This document shows, in pieces, positions 3,024 to 50,262 of a DNA stretch of 64,000 bases; within the stretch, counting starts at the first letter, position 1; each line of letters starts with the position of its first letter. Position numbers and translations under genes: made by a program. The notes under the pieces were generated by a model. It did no database searches, was not told the DNA's origin, and saw only the letters and a program-made list of their open reading frames with translations. Source of the DNA: Minisyncoccota bacterium (GTDB lineage: Bacteria > Patescibacteriota > Minisyncoccia > Phycocordibacterales > UBA9973); assembly GCA_035299545.1 (NCBI GenBank), contig DATGWJ010000021.1:10090-74089 (forward strand), in the 5' to 3' direction.

Positions 3024-3938
3024 TTATTTAAGATATTTATTTATATTTTGTTTATGCTCATCATACGAGACAGCGAAGTGCACTTTACCATTTTTATCAT
3101 GAAGATAATATAAGTAGGAGGATGCTTTTGGTGATATAGCTGCTTTTATAGATGTTAGACCAGGATTATTAAGTGGTTTTATAGGTAGACCTTTATTTTC
3201 ATAAGTCCATCTATCTACATCTACCTGGAGAGGCATATTGAGTGAAATTCTTTTCCATAAAATACCAGAAATTATTTCAACATCTTCTTTCCCACCCGCT
3301 TCTCCTTCTAAAATAGATGCCATGATTACTATTTCCGATAAACTTTTATTACTTTCTTTTAACTCTAAATCAACATTTTCTATTTTATTATTAAAATTAT
3401 CAAACAATTTTTTAATTATTTCATCTGGCTGATCAAGTGAGAATAAAAAGTATGTATCTGGGAACAAATAACCCTGTTTATCTTTTGCTTGAGATAAAAA
3501 TAATTCCTTGTTAAATTGAGGTAATTTATCAGAGAGAATATCAGCAATCTGTTCATTAGTTAAACCTTCCCTGATTGTAATTTTTATAGGCTTCAAATTA
3601 TAGTGGCCTCGTCCTATCTGCCAAGCCACAACAAAAACAGGGGCTTCTTTTTTAATTAGATAATCACCAGTAATTATTCCCTGCCCTTTCTTTAAAAGTT
3701 TAATGAATATTTTTAAAGTTAGATCATTTTTTACAATATTTTTATTCTCTAATTCTAATGCGAGAGAATTTATAGATTGCCCTCCAGAAATATGTATAAT
3801 AGTATCACTACCACCAAATGGAGAGGCTAAAAAAGTAAAATAAAGAATAATAACAAAAATCAATACTAATAATATATACCATTTTTTAGTATTAATTTTT
3901 GTGTCTTGTGACTCTATTTTTTCGAAATTATCATCCAT
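3024..3938 (-). CDS. mltG: endolytic murein transglycosylase MltG (YceG-like)
   Basis: N-terminal TM anchor and the YceG signature region with GYLFPDTYF. Confidence 0.75.
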   Translation of the reverse strand: MDDNFEKIESQDTKINTKKWYILLVLIFVIILYFTFLASPFGGSDTIIHISGGQSINSLALELENKNIVKNDLTLKIFIKLLKKGQGIITGDYLIKKEAPVFVVAWQIGRGHYNLKPIKITIREGLTNEQIADILSDKLPQFNKELFLSQAKDKQGYLFPDTYFLFSLDQPDEIIKKLFDNFNNKIENVDLELKESNKSLSEIVIMASILEGEAGGKEDVEIISGILWKRISLNMPLQVDVDRWTYENKGLPIKPLNNPGLTSIKAAISPKASSYLYYLHDKNGKVHFAVSYDEHKQNINKYLK

Positions 3939-3941
3939 AAA

Positions 3942-5240
3942 CTAGACAGGCAAATTGGAAGGTGGCTTTGCAATCTTTGACTCGATACGCTTGAAGCTTG
4001 GTGTCTCTGAAACCATTCCAGGGAAATGATAAATACTTGCTAATTCCTCACTTGAAAGAACAAAAACATTTGGTTTACCAGATGGGAAGAACATATTAAA
4101 CACTGCTGGATATTTAAAGGCGAACTGTAATGGTGGATGGAAGAATGTCCTCATTCTATAGAAATTAAGCATACGTCTCTTTAATGCCGTTAGGGCAAGA
4201 CCTGTAGGGTCAGACCATGGTGCATCGAACTGAGTAGAATTCACACGATTAAGCTCATTTGAATTTGGCTGAGCAAACTGACGAAATACAAGACGAGCAG
4301 AACGTCTTAGATTATTAAATTGGTCATCTGATATTAATCTTTTATCTGCTAAGGTAACTAATCTGATACCACAATCAAAATGAATGAGTTTCAAATTAGA
4401 AACCCACAATCGAATAGTATCTTCAAGGAATCCAGGCGCACGAACTTCTGTGGCATCAGAACCTCCCACTCCAGATTTTGCGTGAATTCGGGTATAAGGT
4501 TTAAGAACATCTTGAATGTGCTCTTCCGCATATGCATCAAAGTCCACATGCTTACCAGTAAAATGACTATGATATTTCTTAATGTTCTGTCTTACAACTA
4601 TTTGTATCCAAACTTGTTCACCCTTAGGGAGAGAACCCAGATATTCTATGATAGGAGTTATTGGGTCTATCTTGTATTCTTCCTTAGTCCCACTTTTCAT
4701 TTCCTCTACCTGCTTATAGGTTTTTATTGTTTGAACGTCGTGTTTTAATTTATTAAATTCACAACCCCAAAGATTCCAATCACCATCTTTTCTATATTGA
4801 GGAATTTTAAAAGCGTAATCCTCTACTTCTACTACTTTTGCCTGAGGATATTGCGCGTATATTTGCGTCTCTACGAGATCACGAATACGAGTAGGTGTAC
4901 GAATATAAAAATGAACTCTTCCGTCTATAGAAACAATTTCAAGTGAAAACCAAAGCCAAGGTGCACCCTGTACGAATTGCTCCCAAAATCCTTTCATACT
5001 CTTATGATAAAGAGCGTTAGAAAAGATAAGCTCCATAGCTGCAGGTGTCTTTATAACTTCACGGGGTACTTGAATCTCAAGAAGAACCCATTTTATTCCC
5101 ATAATAAAACGTTCTTGTCGGTAATGATGCCACAAAGTGAAAGCTATATATGCCAAAGGTATCGGCATAAGGTAACCAATAGTGACTAAAAGTATTTGTA
5201 TTAGATTGAAATTATGAGTTGCTAAGAATTGTTCTATCAT
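3942..5240 (-). CDS. hypothetical membrane-anchored protein (432 aa)
   Basis: Long ORF with an N-terminal TM segment; no recognisable catalytic motif. Confidence 0.5.
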   Translation of the reverse strand: MIEQFLATHNFNLIQILLVTIGYLMPIPLAYIAFTLWHHYRQERFIMGIKWVLLEIQVPREVIKTPAAMELIFSNALYHKSMKGFWEQFVQGAPWLWFSLEIVSIDGRVHFYIRTPTRIRDLVETQIYAQYPQAKVVEVEDYAFKIPQYRKDGDWNLWGCEFNKLKHDVQTIKTYKQVEEMKSGTKEEYKIDPITPIIEYLGSLPKGEQVWIQIVVRQNIKKYHSHFTGKHVDFDAYAEEHIQDVLKPYTRIHAKSGVGGSDATEVRAPGFLEDTIRLWVSNLKLIHFDCGIRLVTLADKRLISDDQFNNLRRSARLVFRQFAQPNSNELNRVNSTQFDAPWSDPTGLALTALKRRMLNFYRMRTFFHPPLQFAFKYPAVFNMFFPSGKPNVFVLSSEELASIYHFPGMVSETPSFKRIESKIAKPPSNLPV

Positions 5241-5393: not shown

Positions 5394-6425
5394 TTATGCA
5401 ATTGCGTATTGTCCCTGCTTGTTCTTCTTAAAATATTTAGGATTCTGTAAATTTACTAAAATAGTGTTCTTCTTTAGGTATCTTTCTTTCATAACTTGGT
5501 CAACAATTTCTTCTTTTACCATTGGTCCATTTTTCTTTAGAAGTTCTTTTATAACATCTCGGACTACACCAGTCTTGTAACCCCATTCAGATAAGGCATA
5601 TATACCTCTTCCAACAAGGACAAATCTTGGATCCTTTATGAGCTCATTATGACAAGTAGCAACATGACACTTCTTTCCGAAAGTATTTGAAACTGCCTTA
5701 GCTACTTCTCTGAAATGCATAGGACTGCCGTGCTTGCGCATCATTAAGAAAGCATAATCTTTCACTCCACGTGTCTTTATACTTGGTGATGATGCTCTAC
5801 CCCATTCTCCAAGTGGGTTTTTACTAATCTTTTTTGATATTGAGAGCCAGCGACGAGCAATCTCTTCATTTCTATATTGTTCAGATAAATCTTTTATCTC
5901 TTCAAGGAATCGAGCGATAAGCTCACTTTCTGAAATTAATTCATCATCTTTTAGATTTTCATAAATATTCTTGAGTGATTTGTGAATACGATCTGCAATT
6001 TCAGAATCAATACTCCATCGTGCTTTAAAATGATCGTCTTCTTTGTGTTTAGTAAACTCATTACTTAATGTTAAGAAGAGGTTTATGTGGTTCTGAGTCA
6101 ATTTATCTTTTGCTAAATGATTGAGAAGATCTTGTTCTGAAACTATTGCTCCTAGGGTGTGGACTAACTTTTTAAGCTCTTCGAAAACTTCCTTTTCATT
6201 TTTAAAGAATTCAGATTTGCGGATAAGAGATAATGCTGTGTTTTCTATTTGGCGGACACGTTCACGAGTAATACCATATTTCTTACCTATTGCTTCAAGA
6301 GTTCGGCGTTCTGTATCAGCAGTCAATCCAAATCGGTTAACAATGACCTCATAGGCGCGAGGAGGTAAATCTGCTAGTATCTTTTTAGTAATCTGCTTTG
6401 GTTTAAATGTAACTGTAGTAGCCAT
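5394..6425 (-). CDS. sigma-70 region-4 HTH / HARE-HTH domain protein
   Basis: N-terminal LPPRAYEVIVNRFGL...TLEAIGKKYGITRERVRQIENTAL matches sigma-70 region 4. C-terminal HFREVAKAV...RFVLVGRGIYALSEWG matches the HARE-HTH pattern (as in RNAP delta subunit). Confidence 0.5.
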   Translation of the reverse strand: MATTVTFKPKQITKKILADLPPRAYEVIVNRFGLTADTERRTLEAIGKKYGITRERVRQIENTALSLIRKSEFFKNEKEVFEELKKLVHTLGAIVSEQDLLNHLAKDKLTQNHINLFLTLSNEFTKHKEDDHFKARWSIDSEIADRIHKSLKNIYENLKDDELISESELIARFLEEIKDLSEQYRNEEIARRWLSISKKISKNPLGEWGRASSPSIKTRGVKDYAFLMMRKHGSPMHFREVAKAVSNTFGKKCHVATCHNELIKDPRFVLVGRGIYALSEWGYKTGVVRDVIKELLKKNGPMVKEEIVDQVMKERYLKKNTILVNLQNPKYFKKNKQGQYAIA

Positions 6426-20122: not shown

Positions 20123-20755
20123 TTAAGGTAACTGTCGTACTTCTTTTTGAAGAATGTGACCATCTTCATCTAAGTCGTAAATTAAAACTTGCCCAAAAGG
20201 AAGCTCAACTTTCTCAATATCAGCATCAGAAATATTTTCTATATACTTCATTATTGAGCGACCAGAATTACCATGACATACGACTAAGACATTCTTCCCC
20301 TCTTTTAAAACTGGCAATATTTTATTCAAGAAAAAAGGCACAGACCTCTCGTAAACCATTTTCAAACTTTCTCCATTGGAAATATTGCAATCCCAACCTC
20401 TTCGAATTTTTAAAAATTCTTCTTCCCCTAGTAACTTTTGCATTTCCCATTTATTCTTACCGGTGTAGTCGCCGTAGTCACGCTCGTTTAACTCTTTAGC
20501 TTCTTCGGTAGGAATATCTTTACTTAAAGAACTACCTTCTTGTATGGATTCAAGTGTCTCTTTTGAGCGAACCTGAGCAGAGGTAAAAATCTTATCAAAA
20601 TGAATTCCTTCAACTAACTTTCCCATATTTCTTGCCTGTTCAAAACCAAGTGGAGACAAATGAACATCTACAACTCCAGTCCACTTCCCAAGCTTATTCC
20701 ATTCTGATTCGGTATGCCTTAATAACACAAGCTTTCCTACGTTTTTTGTTTCCAT
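20123..20755 (-). CDS. histidine phosphatase / phosphoglycerate mutase family protein
   Basis: LLRHTESEWN motif (RHG phosphohistidine site). Confidence 0.7.
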   Translation of the reverse strand: METKNVGKLVLLRHTESEWNKLGKWTGVVDVHLSPLGFEQARNMGKLVEGIHFDKIFTSAQVRSKETLESIQEGSSLSKDIPTEEAKELNERDYGDYTGKNKWEMQKLLGEEEFLKIRRGWDCNISNGESLKMVYERSVPFFLNKILPVLKEGKNVLVVCHGNSGRSIMKYIENISDADIEKVELPFGQVLIYDLDEDGHILQKEVRQLP

Positions 20756-20791
20756 TTATATAGTATACAACAAATAGTAAACCCTTCGCTC

Positions 20792-20820
20792 TTGACAAAA
20801 TGAGGCACTTACAATATACT
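20792..20820 (+). promoter_or_regulatory. near-consensus sigma-70 promoter TTGACA-17 nt-TATACT
   Basis: TTGACA at 20792-20797 and TATACT at 20815-20820, with exactly 17 nt between them. Confidence 0.55.
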
Positions 20821-20827
20821 GTGTTCT

Positions 20828-20936
20828 GCTTGGAGAGTTTAGAGAGTATCTCTTCAAAGCCGTTGTTCATTTGTGCTTTGTTCATGTTTTTAGGGTTAAG
20901 GTAAGCGGCTTTCGTTTGACGAAAGCCGCTTTTTTG
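20828..20936 (+). ncRNA. candidate small RNA of about 110 nt (promoter to intrinsic terminator, no convincing ORF)
   Basis: Predicted start just after the TATACT box. It ends at hairpin AAGCGGCTTTCGTTTGACGAAAGCCGCTTTTTTG (20903-20936). No plus-strand gene follows. Confidence 0.35.
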
Positions 20937-20939
20937 TTG

Positions 20940-21237
20940 TCTAAAAAGACAAATAAAAAGCCTCCACGATCAAACGTAGAGGCACATGTAAGGTTAATTA
21001 CCTAGGGAAAGTTTCGTTCAGGTATACGCGCCTACACATTGAACAAATGAAGAAAATTAGATCGGGAAGGTGTACATTGTACCCTATCGCCTTATTTTCC
21101 ATTTCCCAGTGGAACCTTGACTTAATGAGTATATTACTCGGAGGAGGAGGAATGTCAAGGGGAAATTTTTAGTTATCAAGTTCTACAACAAGAGATACTT
21201 CCAGTCTCTTCCCCTTAATGGTATTTAAATATATTGG
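20940..21237 (-). ncRNA. structured 3' region after the RT gene (candidate RT-associated ncRNA)
   Basis: 300 nt with no ORF between the RT stop and a minus-strand terminator (CCTCTACG-TTTGAT-CGTGGAGG plus T run, about 20945-20990). Contains nested helices (AAGGGGA...TCCCCTT; CCTTGAC...GTCAAGG) and a CCTCCTCCTCC tract. Confidence 0.3.
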
Positions 21238-22644
21238 TTAAATTTTTAAGTTATATATATTATTGACTCTATTTATGTGTTTTTGTATAAATTTATATGA
21301 GATAGCTTGTGAAGCTAAAAATCTTTTATGGTGAAATAGAAAATCTGTATGTAAACATTCTTTTGTAATATCTTTTAATAAAGCAAGAAAATACTTTTTT
21401 TGTTTAGTATCTATATTAGAGTATATTTTTTTATAGTCTTTAAAATCAGGAGGGTGGGAAACCAAAAAATCTTTTGTCAAAATAAACTTTATAAGGTCAT
21501 CAATTTTCTTCATCTTTCCATCAGCTTTCTTGAGAGAACTTAGTATAGCTCTAACTAAAGTTCTACCTCCAGACCTCAGGTCTTGCTTGTTCTTTAGATA
21601 AAACTCAATTGCTTTATCTATGTTTTTTGAAGAAACAACATTATTGCTTCCTCCTAGTTGCATAAGTATTTCAAATGCAAAATAATTATTAAATTCAGAT
21701 TTTTTTCTTACATGAACTTTTTTTTGATTCAAATTCAAACCTATCCTCATTAAATAACTAGAGGATCTTGCAATAATGTTTTTTATAACTTCTGTTGATT
21801 TAGCGAATACTACTTGGTCGTCTGCATAACGGAAATATTTTGCTCCTAATTTATCACATAATTCTTTCATTTTTTTGTCATAACTTTGCAGATAGAAGTT
21901 AGCTAGAATACGGGAACATTCTCCAAAGAGATCTTGTGGTAAACCAGCATTTTGATGTACATAAAAATTATTATGCCTATTCCAATATTTAAGAAAATGA
22001 AAAAGTAGATATACAACTTCATTATCTTTTGACTCTATATTGCTTCTTATTATATATTCCAGATGATCCAATCTTACTGAATCATAAAAGTTTGCAATAT
22101 CCAATTCTGCCACATAAGAATTTACATAATCATCAACAGAATATTTATAAATTTTGTTTGTAAAATCACCCCAATTAGCTGCCCATGCTTGTGGGTTAAA
22201 ATTAGTAGATATTTCGTATTCTCCTGACTGTATAAATGTATAATAATCTCCTTCAAATTCTTGTACAGAGATAAATTCTTTATCATAGCTAGATAGATCG
22301 ACTTCTTCCTCTATCTTTGTTTCCCCATTTAAAGACCACCCACCATAAGTTCCCTCTACTCTGTTTTTTGCTATGTATTTTTCTAATTTTCTTGTACAGT
22401 AAAAATAAACACAAAGATCTTCCAATTTAAATACAGGAATTACCCTTAAAACCTGGTTACCCTTATTAGAAATTAAATAATTTTGTGGTGGAGAGGGATA
22501 GTATTCTCTGCTTTTTATTTTTATATACAGATTATTAATTAATCTTTCTTTATTAATTGAGGTATATGGTATTAAAGTATCTTTAAGGTTATGTCTCCAA
22601 AACCCCTTATCTAAACATATTTCCTTAAATTCCTTTTCATTCAT
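21238..22644 (-). CDS. reverse transcriptase (unclassified, 468 aa with a long C-terminal extension)
   Basis: RT motifs 1-7: YPSPPQNYLISNKGNQVLRVIPVF; AELDIANFYDSVRLDHL; GLPQDLFGECSRILANFYL; YFRYADDQVVFA; RIGLNLNQKKVHV. No maturase or endonuclease domain. Confidence 0.85.
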   Translation of the reverse strand: MNEKEFKEICLDKGFWRHNLKDTLIPYTSINKERLINNLYIKIKSREYYPSPPQNYLISNKGNQVLRVIPVFKLEDLCVYFYCTRKLEKYIAKNRVEGTYGGWSLNGETKIEEEVDLSSYDKEFISVQEFEGDYYTFIQSGEYEISTNFNPQAWAANWGDFTNKIYKYSVDDYVNSYVAELDIANFYDSVRLDHLEYIIRSNIESKDNEVVYLLFHFLKYWNRHNNFYVHQNAGLPQDLFGECSRILANFYLQSYDKKMKELCDKLGAKYFRYADDQVVFAKSTEVIKNIIARSSSYLMRIGLNLNQKKVHVRKKSEFNNYFAFEILMQLGGSNNVVSSKNIDKAIEFYLKNKQDLRSGGRTLVRAILSSLKKADGKMKKIDDLIKFILTKDFLVSHPPDFKDYKKIYSNIDTKQKKYFLALLKDITKECLHTDFLFHHKRFLASQAISYKFIQKHINRVNNIYNLKI

Positions 22645-23186
22645 TTAGTATTTTTATCCTTAGAACTTTTTGTTATAGAGCTTTTTGTCCCATCTTCAAA
22701 AGTTCCTTCTAGGGCAATAAAGACATCAGCTGGATGTATGTTTGATTGATCAAAAGCAAGTCTTCTTATTTCTGGCTCAACAAATATCTGAGTTTTGTCT
22801 TTTTTACCTTTTTCTCCAGCGTAGACAACTAATCTTTTTCCTACTTTGGATTCAGTAAGAATTGCTCTGACAAAATACATATTATCTTTTGAATCAGCCT
22901 TGTCTTCTGCAATAGGGATAGCTTCATCATCAAGATTAATAAATTTCATTTTCTTAAACTCTTTGGAATTCAACTTATCAATAATGTAATGTTTTTGAAC
23001 ATTAAATTCTCTAGGAAGAGTATAATTTTTTTCACATTCCTGACATTTTAACCAACAAGCGTGTGGGTTATTTAATATTAAAGAAAGAGAGAGATGATGT
23101 TTAGGGCAAAGAGGTTTTGTATATTCCTCAGATGAGTATTGAACATGCCACTTAATTCCATCTATAATTACATATTGGTCATCCAT
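22641..23186 (-). CDS. zinc-ribbon protein co-transcribed with the RT (181 aa)
   Basis: CPKHH...CWLKCQEC Cys/His cluster. Its stop overlaps the RT start (ATGA), which suggests translational coupling. Confidence 0.6.
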   Translation of the reverse strand: MDDQYVIIDGIKWHVQYSSEEYTKPLCPKHHLSLSLILNNPHACWLKCQECEKNYTLPREFNVQKHYIIDKLNSKEFKKMKFINLDDEAIPIAEDKADSKDNMYFVRAILTESKVGKRLVVYAGEKGKKDKTQIFVEPEIRRLAFDQSNIHPADVFIALEGTFEDGTKSSITKSSKDKNTK

Positions 23187-23192
23187 AATATC

Positions 23193-23546
23193 TTAAAAAT
23201 CATAACCGTTATTACCAAAGTTATAATAACTACTTGTCTGTATACTTTTAACCAAAGTTCCTTTATTTCTACAATCAGGACACTCTTGCTCTTCAAGTTT
23301 AGCCCCTTTTGGAATATCAAAACCCTTTTTTGAGAAATTGCAGTTAGTGCATTCAGTATCTAATTTATAGAATTCTGGGATTTTATCATTCATGAGCAGA
23401 TTATAGCAAATTCTTAATAAAATACAAAAATATTTAGGGTCACTAAGGTATGCTTCGCATTCTATCCCAATGTGGTCACAAGTTACTAAATATTTTTCTT
23501 CAAGTATTCGAAAAATATGTAAGTACTCGCGACCCCAGCTCGGCAA
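23193..23546 (-). CDS. cysteine-rich small protein (117 aa), first gene of the RT operon. Start uncertain, apparently TTG
   Basis: TCDH, ECEAY, CTNC and CPDC pairs. Paralogous segment shared with ORF 25201..25440. Confidence 0.45.
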   Translation of the reverse strand: MPSWGREYLHIFRILEEKYLVTCDHIGIECEAYLSDPKYFCILLRICYNLLMNDKIPEFYKLDTECTNCNFSKKGFDIPKGAKLEEQECPDCRNKGTLVKSIQTSSYYNFGNNGYDF

Positions 23547-23625
23547 TTTTTCTGCTGAAAAATTATGCCTGTGCTTTCACAAAAGCGAAAAAGACTGGAG
23601 CAGTCCAGTCTTTTTAAATTCATGC

Positions 23626-23662
23626 TTTTGTGACCCTAGGGGTTAATAATTGGGGACGGATT
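23626..23662. repeat. degenerate copy of the tRNA-Glu 3' half (att-like footprint), copy 1
   Basis: TTTTGTGACCCTAGGGGTTAATAATTGGGGACGGATT versus the tRNA plus-strand AATTTGTGACCCTACCGGGAATCGAACCCGGATT. Preceded by hairpin GACTGGAGCAGTCCAGTC plus T run, as the tRNA is. Confidence 0.6.
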
Positions 23663-23812
23663 GTGGAGGATATAAAGGTATTTATAAGCTATGTTGATTT
23701 CTTGGTATATAAACACAATAGAAAGCTTGACATATCTACTTTTTTGTGCTAATCTCTAGAAAAGAACTTATTTGAAAATAAACTAATATATTCACTAATA
23801 AATGACAAAGGT

Positions 23813-24577
23813 ATGGGACACAGAACACTTAAAAGGGTGCCATTAAATTTTAATGCACCACTAAACAAAGTTTGGAAGGGATATTTAAATCCGTTTCCAG
23901 GACCACGAGAATGTAATCATTGCAAAGGTAGTGGGTATAATAATGCTACTAGGAAAATTGCAGATGATTATTATGGCCATTACTCTCAAAGAAGTCGTCG
24001 CTGGTGTGATAACATTACACAGGATGAAGTGCAAGCCCTCGTTGATGCTGGTCGTCTTTGGGATTTTACCAGAGTTCCCCTTAATGAAAAACAACTGAAA
24101 GATGTTTTGCCTAATGGCTGGCTTCCGTATGATAATGGAAAAATTCCTACAGCAGAAGAAGTTAACGCTTGGAGTGTTAAAGGTATTGGCCACGACACTT
24201 TTAATAAATCTATTTTAATTGAAACAAGAGCCAAACGTTTACATGTCTTCGGTTATTGTCCTCATTGTAAAGGAAAAGGAGAAACAAAACTTCCAAGGAA
24301 GATGAAAAAACGTTATCAAAACTGGCGGAAACATGATCCTCCACAAGGAGAAGGATTCCAGTTGTGGTCAACTACAACAGGAGGATCACCATTTAGCCCT
24401 GTTTTTGAAAATGCTGAACAACTTGCAGTATGGTGTGCAGATAATGCTACTATTTTTGCAGATTATAAACTAACTGCCAAAGAGTGGCTCCAGGTATTTG
24501 CAGATGAACATGTTCTTGATCTAGAAAGTTCCTGTATAATTGTAGTGAAAAAAGAAGCAGAATTTTGCTTAAATTAA
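23813..24577 (+). CDS. hypothetical protein with two CxxCxGxG zinc-finger motifs
   Basis: CNHCKGSGY and CPHCKGKGE. Own TTGACA-17 nt-TAATCT promoter at about 23737-23765 and a hairpin terminator at 24601-24632. Confidence 0.55.
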   Translation: MGHRTLKRVPLNFNAPLNKVWKGYLNPFPGPRECNHCKGSGYNNATRKIADDYYGHYSQRSRRWCDNITQDEVQALVDAGRLWDFTRVPLNEKQLKDVLPNGWLPYDNGKIPTAEEVNAWSVKGIGHDTFNKSILIETRAKRLHVFGYCPHCKGKGETKLPRKMKKRYQNWRKHDPPQGEGFQLWSTTTGGSPFSPVFENAEQLAVWCADNATIFADYKLTAKEWLQVFADEHVLDLESSCIIVVKKEAEFCLN

Positions 24578-24663
24578 TTGTTCATAAAAATTATTATTCT
24601 CTCCAATGGTTATAAGCCATTGGAGTTTTTTTATTTAAAAACACCCTCTTTTGAGAGTTTTTT

Positions 24664-24701
24664 AATTTGTGACCCTAGAGGTTAGTAGTTGGGGACAGAT
24701 T
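24664..24701. repeat. degenerate copy of the tRNA-Glu 3' half (att-like footprint), copy 2
   Basis: AATTTGTGACCCTAGAGGTTAGTAGTTGGGGACAGATT, followed by a TTGACA-17 nt-TATAGT promoter for the next ORF. Confidence 0.6.
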
Positions 24702-24786
24702 TTAGAAAATATAAGGGATTTTGGGTTTTATATTGACAATTAAATTTAAATCTGTTATAGTGTAATAAATTTTAAATTATACAATA

Positions 24787-25155
24787 ATGAGCAATAAAAT
24801 TGTGCACACAGTAATGACACAGGAAGGTCCCCGGTACAGAGTATGGTCAGATAATAGTGATAGATATGTAAGTCAAATCTTAACAGAAGATGAGCTTATG
24901 TTATTTTCAATTTTAATGGAAATAGAACCACTTCTGATAAATCATTTCTATGATCCCAAATATACTGGGGTAGTACTTGGTCACTGGATTCAGCGAGGAG
25001 AAGTTCTTAAGGATTGGAAGGTTGAATCAGAATTTATACCTGCTGATGATAAAGAGCAGGAAAAATATTCCAATATGGCAAAATCACAAAAAGAATTTCT
25101 ATTAAAAGCTGCCAATCTCTGGGAAGAATTCTTTCTTAATGGAAACATTAAGTGA
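24787..25155 (+). CDS. hypothetical protein (122 aa)
   Basis: ORF with an upstream consensus-like promoter; no motif recognised. Confidence 0.45.
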   Translation: MSNKIVHTVMTQEGPRYRVWSDNSDRYVSQILTEDELMLFSILMEIEPLLINHFYDPKYTGVVLGHWIQRGEVLKDWKVESEFIPADDKEQEKYSNMAKSQKEFLLKAANLWEEFFLNGNIK

Positions 25156-25200
25156 ATAACAACAAATCAAACGAGTATAACTTTTAATAGTGTACTCGTT

Positions 25201-25440
25201 TTATTTTACGTAACGATATACTGGAATTGCAAGTACACTTATTAAACCTAATAGGTTAGGGTCACTTTGGTATGCTTCTTCGCATTCATATTTTACGTGG
25301 TCACAAGTTAGACCGGGACCGCGAGTACGCTTATCGGTCATTACATGACCAGTACACCTTTTCCATTCGTGAGTACACTCACATGGAAAAGGTTTTCGAT
25401 TCCCGGACGCGAGATATGCAGATATCTCGCTTAGGGTCAC
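25201..25440 (-). CDS. cysteine-rich small protein, paralog of ORF 23193..23546
   Basis: GLTCDHVKYECEEAYQSDPNLL aligns to YLVTCDHIGIECEAYLSDPKYF. Chosen over the overlapping plus-strand ORF 25272..25460 because of this paralogy. Confidence 0.45.
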   Translation of the reverse strand: MTLSEISAYLASGNRKPFPCECTHEWKRCTGHVMTDKRTRGPGLTCDHVKYECEEAYQSDPNLLGLISVLAIPVYRYVK

Positions 25441-25481
25441 AAATTAAAAACTCCGACTGAAAGGTCGGCTTTTTTAATTTG

Positions 25482-25553
25482 TGACCCTACCGGGAATCGA
25501 ACCCGGATTACCGGCTTGAAAAGCCGATGTCCTAACCGTTAGACGATAGGGCC
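25482..25553 (-). tRNA. tRNA-Glu (anticodon UUC)
   Basis: Aligns position by position to E. coli tRNA-Glu: GGCCCUAUCGUCUAACGGUUAGGACAUCGGCUUUUCAAGCCGGUAAUCCGGGUUCGAUUCCCGGUAGGGUCA. Confidence 0.85.
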
Positions 25554-48791: not shown

Positions 48792-50021
48792 TTAATTTAC
48801 AAACGTTAGTGCTTTACCTACTTGGTTTCCACGGCCGGTTCGGCCGATACGGTGAACATAATCTTCATAAGTAGCAGGGATTTCGAAATTAATAACATGA
48901 GTTACATTTGGTATATCGAGTCCGCGCGCAGCTACGTCTGTAGCCACAAGTATCTGACTGTGATTATCGCGAAATGCTTTCAATGCATTTGCACGTTTAT
49001 TCTGATTTTTATCTCCGTGAATAGATTCAGCTTTAAAACCTTGTCTTACAAGTGTCTGACAAAGTTTTTCCACTCCGTGTTTTGTTCTACCAAAAATAAG
49101 AACTTTAGAAAATTCTTTACTTGATAAAAGTGTACTTAAGTGCTCAACTTTATCTTTACCTTGTGGAACACGCACAATATCTTGGTCGACATTGCGAGCT
49201 GTCTCCCCTGTTTTCACTGAAATTTTTTCTGGATTAGTTAGAAATTCTTTTATCAACTTATCAATTTCACTTGTGATTGTCGCAGAGAATAAAAGTGTCT
49301 GACGATTCGGAGCCATTTGCGACATTACAAATCGCATATCATCTACGAAGCCCATATCGAGCATTCTGTCCGCTTCATCAAGTACGATAGTACGAAATTC
49401 TGCTAAGCGTAGAACTTTCCTATCTACTAGGTCACGTAACCTCCCAGGAGTTCCTATCACAATATTATGAGATCTTTTAAGTCCATAAATCTGATTAGAA
49501 ATTCCCATTCCGCCAACGCAACACACAGAAAAGATTCGGAGATCTCCCCGGAAGCCCATAAGTTCTTGGTTGATCTGCATTGCTAATTCGCGAGTTGGCA
49601 CTATTACTAGAACTTTCTCTTGTGGATTATTTAATATTTTATTAATAGATGGAATCAGAAAAGCAGCAGTCTTACCCGTACCAGTATTTGCAATACCGAT
49701 AACATCACGACCAGAAAGAACGTGAGGGATTGCCATATCTTGAATTGGAGTTGGGTCGACATAACCTTTCTTTGAAATATTTGTTTTGATTGCAGTGTGA
49801 ATATTAAAATCTGCAAATTTATTTACTGGAATATAAGGAGCAGATTCGATAATTGGATCCGCTTTCTTAATGAAACGAGAATGACTAATAGAACTGCCAC
49901 CGCCAAAACGCTTACCAGACCTTGAACGTCCAAAATTTTTTCTGCCACGAAAATTGTTTTTAGATCCACTAGAATGTGAACCGCCGCCTTGGCTTCTGCC
50001 TCGGCTTGATTGTTTATACAT
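48792..50021 (-). CDS. DEAD-box ATP-dependent RNA helicase with a Gly/Arg-rich N-terminal tail
   Basis: Q-motif region; GIANTGTGKTAAF; DEAD; SAT; HRIGRTGRG. Confidence 0.9.
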   Translation of the reverse strand: MYKQSSRGRSQGGGSHSSGSKNNFRGRKNFGRSRSGKRFGGGSSISHSRFIKKADPIIESAPYIPVNKFADFNIHTAIKTNISKKGYVDPTPIQDMAIPHVLSGRDVIGIANTGTGKTAAFLIPSINKILNNPQEKVLVIVPTRELAMQINQELMGFRGDLRIFSVCCVGGMGISNQIYGLKRSHNIVIGTPGRLRDLVDRKVLRLAEFRTIVLDEADRMLDMGFVDDMRFVMSQMAPNRQTLLFSATITSEIDKLIKEFLTNPEKISVKTGETARNVDQDIVRVPQGKDKVEHLSTLLSSKEFSKVLIFGRTKHGVEKLCQTLVRQGFKAESIHGDKNQNKRANALKAFRDNHSQILVATDVAARGLDIPNVTHVINFEIPATYEDYVHRIGRTGRGNQVGKALTFVN

Positions 50022-50262
50022 AATTTTTTACCTAATCTATTAAAATAAAAGTAAGACGGATTAGGACCTTCCCCTCTAGTTTCCAATAATGACTATCACG
50101 AGGGATAAGGCGTTATGTCGCGCAACATGCGCAAGAAACCAATGAGAATACAACTTACTATATAAGTATATAATTATTCTTTAATTTTGTCAAGTTTAGT
50201 GAATCTATCTCCACTAACTAAAACTCCCCTTGAACCGAGTTCAAGGGGAGTTTGTTTATAAA

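Follow-up and report, generated by a model that had tools for sequence, protein, structure and literature searches.

A probable lineage-specific small RNA with twin single-stranded motifs, encoded divergently from a phosphatase gene in Candidatus Paceibacterota

The DNA analysed here, referred to throughout as the window, is a 64-kb stretch of a metagenome-assembled genome of Candidatus Paceibacterota (CPR/Patescibacteria). The locus of interest is bounded on one side by a minus-strand gene for a branch-1, gpmA-like histidine phosphatase (20755..20123), beyond which lie tRNA-Ser and then tRNA-Val, and on the other by a minus-strand gene for a reverse transcriptase (RT; 22644..21238) with a full-length match to RT_UG13b (E 4e-126). 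The intergenic space holds a plus-strand unit consisting of a promoter block, TCTTGACAAA-N11-ACAATATACT (20790..20820), a predicted non-coding RNA of about 110 nt (20828..20936) and an intrinsic terminator (20903..20935). The RT operon is closed by a terminator of its own on the minus strand (20983..20960), about 20 nt from the plus-strand terminator of the unit.

The −35 box TTGACA (20792-20797) and the −10 box TATACT (20815-20820) are separated by a 17-nt spacer and together match the sigma-70 consensus at 11 of 12 positions. With initiation assumed to occur about 7-8 nt past the −10 box, the RNA would start at G20828, and its 3′ end was placed in the T run, both ends being read from the sequence. 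A terminator scan reported a 12-13-bp stem, a loop and a T run; the stem, AAGCGGCTTTCG-TTTGA-CGAAAGCCGCTT, is perfect (20903-20931), the T run extends to 20935, and the scan counted 13 stem pairs around a loop of 3-5 nt. The predicted RNA folds better than shuffled sequences (z = −3.05), mostly because of this terminator. Promoters matching the consensus at 11 of 12 positions occur at seven sites in the 64-kb window (about three in dinucleotide shuffles) and strong terminators nine times (0.08 in shuffles). A strong terminator 40-200 nt behind such a promoter is seen exactly once in the window and in none of 40 shuffles; the combination is beyond chance. From these signals we infer that the unit is transcribed. 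The initial annotation had described a near-consensus sigma-70 promoter (TTGACA-17-TATACT, 20792-20820) divergent from the phosphatase gene, a strong hairpin with a T run about 110 nt downstream, and the absence of a following plus-strand gene, all of which agrees with the present results, the next sizeable plus-strand ORF beginning at 23813. It had also called the promoter about the best in the window, which is right as to its score of 11/12 but not as to uniqueness, given the seven sites that reach it.

The ATG of the phosphatase gene is preceded by TATACT and 6 nt, and those of its relatives by TGnTATAAT and 6-7 nt (read from the sequences), which suggests that the phosphatase mRNA may be leaderless, with its start at 20755. 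This −10-like box would place the phosphatase promoter at about 20756-20775 on the minus strand, where it does not overlap the plus-strand unit. The divergent promoters are 35-38 nt apart in all three of the genomes described below, and since they stand back to back, the RNA would not be antisense to the phosphatase mRNA. The −10 box of the phosphatase gene, of tRNA-Ser, of tRNA-Glu and of the unit is TATACT in each case.

The predicted RNA begins with a hairpin, GCUUGGAGAG / CUCUUC(A)AAGC (20828..20860, plus strand), with ten pairs, one bulged A and a 12-nt loop, and ends with the terminator hairpin. The middle of the RNA is predicted to be U-rich and mostly single-stranded, with two copies of the motif UYGUUCAU. 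Motif 1 (20863..20870, plus strand), common to all three members of the family, reads UUGUUCAU in the window and UCGUUCAU in L082. Motif 2 (20871..20885, plus strand) is an extended block, UNGUGYUUUGUUCAU, whose 9-nt core UUUGUUCAU (20877-20885) is identical in all three. Just 5′ of the terminator, a further motif is kept in 3/3 members (AGGGUUAA at 20892..20899 on the plus strand, AGGGUUUA in L081 and AGGGGUUA in L082), with the consensus AGGG(G)UU(A/U)A, or AGGG(G)UUAA. In the whole window the pattern of twin motifs is found once, against 0.01 occurrences expected by chance. In the predicted folds the motifs are largely unpaired: unpaired probabilities range from 0.44 to 0.97 over the three members, the GUUCAU core of motif 1 has means of 0.95 (window) and 0.78 (L082), motif 2 of L082 lies in the loop of a predicted 7-bp hairpin, and accessibility in L081 is only moderate (0.44-0.52). 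The start-to-start distance between the two UYGUUCAU motifs is 14, 24 and 23 nt in the three members, a variability that speaks against a dimeric DNA operator and for a function in RNA.

Relatives were sought by collecting phosphatase homologues and comparing the contigs of the nearest ones. Two metagenomic contigs, L081 and L082, whose phosphatases are 89% and 78% identical to that of the window, carry the unit at the same place and in the same orientation upstream of the orthologous gene, and each has the promoter block, the 5′ hairpin, UYGUUCAU, a spacer, UUUGUUCAU, the AGGG motif and the terminator in that order. An intergenic gene with its own promoter and its own intrinsic terminator is what is generally expected of a stand-alone sRNA, and both signals are kept in L081 and L082. 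L081 keeps the downstream synteny with tRNA-Ser and tRNA-Val, while the far neighbour of the unit in L082 is an ABC-transporter gene and not an RT gene. The samples with these organisms are the source of the window contig, ENA ERZ4903072 and SRA SRR11476867. The unit was not found upstream of the phosphatase gene in relatives at or below 77% identity, where the same spot instead holds a divergent promoter leading to tRNA-Glu (L086) or to protein genes (L084, L085 and L001); the intergenic site upstream of the phosphatase gene is thus, on this comparison of contigs, evidently a hot spot for change. A scan of a genome collection with the phosphatase alignment gave 80 loci, the nearest 67% identical, none of them with the unit. 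In a metagenome scan with a pattern of the −10 box, motif 2 and AGGG, all 24 matches were at chance level and lacked the −35 box, motif 1 and the terminator. None of the matches listed (at least 100 stretches) from a scan of a viral collection with a looser pattern scored with the unit profile, the best E being 0.5. Only three proteins in the match list are phosphatase homologues at 78% identity or more, suggesting that the clade is rarely sampled.

The window and L082 are far enough apart to make the conservation of the unit informative. Identity at four-fold degenerate sites of the phosphatase gene is 58% between the window and L081 and 31% between the window and L082; since the latter is close to the roughly 0.29 estimated for random sequence from base composition, neutral sites between the window and L082 are saturated. 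The promoter block nevertheless matches that of the window at 27/31 positions in L081 and 23/31 in L082. Unbiased global alignments of window and L082 segments, scored against shuffles, gave z = 6.6 (p 0.0005) for the promoter, z = 2.6-3.5 (p 0.004-0.012) for the RNA body without its terminator, z = 5.3 (p 0.0005) for the terminator, and z = −0.8 (p 0.82) for the flank just 3′ of the terminator, so that the conserved block has sharp edges exactly at promoter and terminator. As judged from these alignments, the whole unit, from the −35 box to the T run, is under purifying selection.

The predicted structure is conserved along with the sequence. Window, L081 and L082 each fold independently into both hairpins in single-sequence folding, the 5′ hairpin with energies of −9.0, −13.2 and −9.6 kcal/mol across the three members, and that of L082 still folds although its sequence is unrelated. 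When a covariance model was built on just two sequences, window and L081, it recovered L082 (E 1.4e-6). This model was also used to align the three sequences, since a MAFFT alignment of the terminator used with RNAalifold put L082 out of register and produced falsely 'broken' pairs. In the model-made alignment 98.3% of cells are paired, a level reached in 0/500 shuffles and compared with at most 56% in slid controls. Changes on both sides of a pair that keep it paired are found in 6 of 20 pairs, three per helix, a count made on an alignment fitted to the model and resting on three sequences with few independent events. In the 5′ hairpin they affect three of the eight modelled pairs, and in the terminator stem G-C has become A-U, C-G has become U-A and U-A has become C-G between the window and L082. 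Conservation and covariation in related genomes, proposed as a check in the initial annotation, are thus both observed, with the unit kept in L081 and L082 and with covarying changes in both hairpins. A conserved, accessible candidate seed within a covarying structure, as generally looked for in sRNAs, is likewise present across these three sequences.

A different promoter-to-terminator unit of about 75 nt lies upstream of the phosphatase gene on the minus strands of L087 (39-159) and L088 (1-92). It has TTGACAAA...TATACT, then AGGGUUUA...UUUUUCAUUUUUUU and then a 13-bp terminator, with a fold z of −4.85. The covariance model gave marginal matches only to L087 and L088 (E 0.015 and 0.027) and these placed the promoter onto the 5′ hairpin, so neither was counted as a member; a profile from the hand alignment of the unit, in which the L082 row carried one extra A, had no match in either. 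The secure members of the family are only three: the window, L081 and L082. In L086 (1-163), the divergent promoter upstream of the phosphatase gene drives tRNA-Glu.

Only trivial ORFs had been noted inside the unit by the initial annotation, and the ORFs that overlap it are indeed short or unconserved: MFLGLR (from 20883, plus strand), a 34-aa ORF with its ATG within the promoter, a 44-aa ORF starting with TTG and a 63-aa ORF on the minus strand. Were the unit a small-protein gene, encoding a hydrophobic plus-strand peptide or a short minus-strand peptide beginning MNK, one could point to a 9-nt indel between the window and L081 that preserves the frame, to a 33-aa hydrophobic ORF in L081 and to the presence of some short ORF in each copy. 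However, the plus-strand ORFs of the window, L081 and L082 differ in start place and length (6-34, 33 and 21 aa), as does the length of the minus-strand MNK ORF (63, 13 and 8 aa), and the frames of the first GUUCAU and of the AGGG motif are not the same in L082 as in the window. No in-frame ATG was found inside the window transcript, and none of the three members has an ATG at the predicted transcription start, which argues against leaderless translation. A six-frame comparison found no reading frame common to the three copies, the pattern expected of an sRNA, and coding of a small peptide on either strand was therefore rejected; we consider it highly improbable. Since the conservation is at the nucleotide level, the unit is taken to be non-coding. 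Together with the conservation and covariation described above, the lack of a common ORF supports the earlier view of the locus as a stand-alone unit and candidate sRNA, and the locus is likely to be a non-coding RNA gene that stands alone and is under selection.

Comparison with known RNA families, which had also been proposed earlier, gave no Rfam match to the unit at gathering threshold in a search of the whole window, and a permissive search of 20600-21300 and of L081 and L082 gave only sub-threshold matches driven by the terminator. RoxS/RsaE-type sRNAs of Gram-positive bacteria (RF01820) are stand-alone RNAs of about 100 nt that use repeated single-stranded motifs as seeds and end in an intrinsic terminator, their repeated motif being C-rich and directed at the Shine-Dalgarno sequence. 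The unit is similar in standing alone, in its repeated short single-stranded motifs and in its terminal terminator, but its motif, UYGUUCAU, is not C-rich and Shine-Dalgarno sequences are rare in its genome; the only RsaE match is the terminator on the wrong strand (19.6 bits vs 79).

The best sub-threshold Rfam match of the unit was to FopS (RF04319; 28 bits against a gathering score of 56, E 0.048), in an alignment that included UUCAUG...UUAAGGU of the window. No FopS match was found in L081 or L082 up to E 10, and since the resemblance is not reproduced there, it is regarded as chance rather than membership. FopS and GibS (RF04319 and RF04182) of Bacteroides thetaiotaomicron are short intergenic RNAs with a housekeeping-type promoter and an intrinsic terminator. 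Through a conserved single-stranded seed that pairs at or beside the start codon, they prevent the initiation of translation, and their phylum, the Bacteroidota, does not rely on Shine-Dalgarno sequences (PMC11697453). The unit resembles them in having its own promoter and intrinsic terminator and a Shine-Dalgarno-poor host. The seed of FopS, however, is at its extreme 5′ end, whereas that of the unit would be internal, behind the 5′ hairpin, and duplicated; FopS has 14 paralogues, whereas the unit is single-copy, with no second copy in the window or elsewhere in the loci compared; and FopS belongs to another phylum and has an RbpB-type partner, none being known for the unit. Membership of the FopS family was rejected on the missed gathering score, the position of the seed, the single copy and the host, a member of the Paceibacterota.

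The unit had been described earlier as lying beside the RT operon. It does adjoin this operon, but the adjacency proved incidental: the unit goes with the phosphatase gene, and other UG13b RT loci lack it. A requirement for an ncRNA is known for several UG/Abi RT systems and suspected for more (PMC9226505), so a short structured RNA next to such an RT is readily seen as its template or guide, like the ncRNAs of DRT2 (UG2), DRT3 (UG3+UG8) and DRT9 (UG28), which are co-inherited with the RT and encoded on the RT strand immediately upstream or downstream of it (PMC9226505). UG13b RTs themselves have been predicted, not shown, to be defensive, and no ncRNA has been described for them (PMC9226505). 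In common with the DRT ncRNAs, the unit is short, predicted to be structured and adjacent to a UG/Abi-class RT. It differs from them in that it converges on the RT operon from the opposite strand, with the operon's own terminator between the two, and in that it travels with the phosphatase gene: in L082 it is kept beside that gene with no adjacent RT, and the covariance model and inspection of the loci did not find it at five loci with RTs 63-67% identical. Because of these last two findings we do not regard the unit as an RNA of the RT system; as gene order indicates, it has no connection to the adjacent UG13b RT island, and a role as the RT's partner is given next to no weight. The tempting inference that the unit is the missing ncRNA partner of this RT is thereby corrected.

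A hot spot whose contents differ between relatives makes a decaying remnant conceivable a priori, and the presence of tRNA-Glu at this position in L086, along with short resemblances to tRNA-Glu seen by eye (the anticodon-arm-like CTCTTCAAAGCCG and TAGGGTTA), would fit descent from tRNA-Glu or another lost gene. Alignment to tRNA-Glu, however, scored at shuffle level (p 0.15-0.85), no tRNA covariance model matched in 20600-21300 up to E 10, and a remnant would not stay conserved at saturating divergence, so that this origin seems as implausible as a partnership with the RT. A tRNA or tRNA-derived element was rejected, ARAGORN finding only three real tRNAs in the window and none at the unit. 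The ATPase gene of the ABC transporter in L082 starts about 70 nt past the terminator on the same strand, which raises the question of whether the unit is a cis-acting leader or attenuator of such a gene, which in the window would have been pushed away when the island inserted. This we consider improbable, if less so than a small protein, because the window keeps its unit intact although it lacks an ABC homologue and the next 2.9 kb are free of plus-strand genes, and because the ABC gene of L082 has its own −10-like box beside its ATG (read from the sequence). No antiterminator pairing is conserved, the AAAGCCG segment of the window that could pair being absent from L081 and L082, and no cis-regulatory Rfam family came near threshold (L20_leader reached 25.8 bits vs 58.7, from the terminator only). 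Assignment to the leader or riboswitch class was rejected on the 2.9 kb without a plus-strand gene and on the lack of a family match.

Two further readings accept transcription of the unit but not a pairing function. The divergent promoter and terminator might serve the phosphatase promoter, by supercoiling coupling or by insulation from the island, with the rest of the transcript as filler. Such a role would suit the back-to-back promoters kept 35-38 nt apart in all three genomes, the strong divergent promoters that drive other things at this site in other relatives, and the conservation of the unit, which is highest in promoter and terminator. Yet the internal motifs and the 5′ hairpin also persist at saturating divergence, and filler would have retained neither a block of 9-15 nt nor compensated changes in its stems; we regard this reading as unlikely. 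Slightly more probable, though still unlikely, is a protein-binding RNA that acts as a sponge or decoy, in which the two UYGUUCAU copies would titrate an RNA-binding protein with no pairing to mRNA. The repetition of the motif, the variable spacing of its copies, the display of one copy in a loop and the failure to find an mRNA target among the start regions of the window are consistent with titration. There are, however, just two sites and no candidate binding protein has been identified, and the second motif is kept over 15 nt, which is beyond a typical protein site and more seed-like.

The best overall explanation, to which we assign a probability of roughly 0.5, is a small ncRNA gene with its own promoter and terminator, confined to a narrow Paceibacterota lineage, whose product would pair at start codons; the unit is probably a lineage-specific, trans-acting small RNA with twin single-stranded motifs. 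In outline, the RNA would be transcribed at a high level, with the 5′ hairpin and the terminator hairpin protecting or stabilising its ends, and the twin exposed motifs would be its working part, serving as seeds complementary to AUGAAC(A/G)A, that is, to a start codon and the bases that follow. Antisense pairing at the translation-start regions of one or more mRNAs encoded elsewhere in the genome, for example of genes beginning AUGAACAAA..., would then block initiation, and the 5′ ends of leaderless mRNAs are possible pairing sites. Pairing at start codons is preferred because of this complementarity and because the window has few Shine-Dalgarno sequences and many −10-like boxes before ATGs: of its 67 crude genes, a Shine-Dalgarno-like motif precedes four, and TAnnnT stands 5-8 nt ahead of the ATG in 20. 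A search for duplexes with the 67 start regions of the 64-kb window, which is part of an 81-kb contig, gave none beyond shuffles, 13% of which were as good, and the complement of the conserved 15-mer occurs in the window at chance level and at no gene start. The part of the proposal by which the RNA acts by base pairing through the UYGUUCAU motifs is accordingly put forward tentatively, as a possibility with the odds somewhat against it.

If this explanation is true, such an RNA would offer a way to control translation initiation in tiny genomes with few transcription factors and few Shine-Dalgarno sequences. Post-transcriptional regulation in CPR/Patescibacteria appears, as far as titles tell, to be essentially uncharted, the literature titles with small or non-coding RNA terms concerning other subjects. 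A bolder version, in which the unit would be the first conserved riboregulator in CPR/Patescibacteria, an abundant RNA of about 110 nt whose twin anti-start-codon motifs act at the 5′ ends of leaderless or Shine-Dalgarno-less mRNAs, is doubtful. Stand-alone sRNAs are a familiar kind of element and this family is tiny and lineage-specific, which makes the finding useful rather than surprising; an sRNA gene with clear boundaries, signs of selection and a candidate seed is a concrete object to look for in metatranscriptomes. On the comparisons made here, the unit represents a new, very small, lineage-specific family of candidate sRNAs.

Several further features of the window and of related loci were observed. 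The only other promoter in the window like TTGACAAA-N11-..TATACT, with two mismatches, lies on the minus strand at 50021-50193, where it drives a leader of about 140 nt ahead of a gene whose protein has an RG-rich N-terminus; this leader could be a cis-regulatory element. A second stand-alone unit (20953-21158, minus strand) converges on the first. Its promoter-like sequence, TTGACA-16-TAATAT (21158..21131), lies past the RT stop codon, and its predicted RNA of about 173 nt (21125..20953), which includes the terminator at 20983..20960, folds well, with an energy of −51.3 kcal/mol (z = −3.6). This RNA might be an ncRNA associated with UG13b or simply the 3′ end of the operon, and its sequence does not resemble the flanks of RT homologues at 63-67% identity.

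The region beyond the unit contains repeats associated with tRNA-Glu (25481-25553, minus strand). An exact copy of the last 8 nt of this tRNA gene together with 12 nt of its 3′ flank lies at 24658-24677, and the stretch also contributes to a 57-nt direct repeat (23627-23683 and 24666-24722, 81% identical). Right after tRNA-Glu, an inverted copy (25432-25489) gives rise to a long hairpin around the tRNA-Glu terminator. These repeats look like att-type scars of serial insertions at tRNA-Glu and suggest that about 20940-25480 is a mosaic island. Similarity of the unit to repeats in this island was at chance level (p 0.74) and was discarded. The 117-aa ORF that heads the RT operon (23193-23546, minus strand) and a 79-aa ORF beside tRNA-Glu (25201-25440, minus strand) both contain TCDH..EC.EAY.SDP, a shared pattern that marks their products as small Cys-rich paralogues; Pfam and PADLOC gave no match to either.

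The ORFs upstream of the RT of the window have no homologues at the closest RT locus (L114), and the neighbour genes of the UG13b RT homologues all differ. The homologue in L117 lies beside a tRNA gene followed by several fragments like tRNA T-arms and acceptor stems (991-1454), and that in L115 beside long non-coding stretches with T-arm-like segments (3644-4000 and 5420-5763). These arrangements suggest that the RT travels on its own, as a single gene, into islands linked to tRNA genes.
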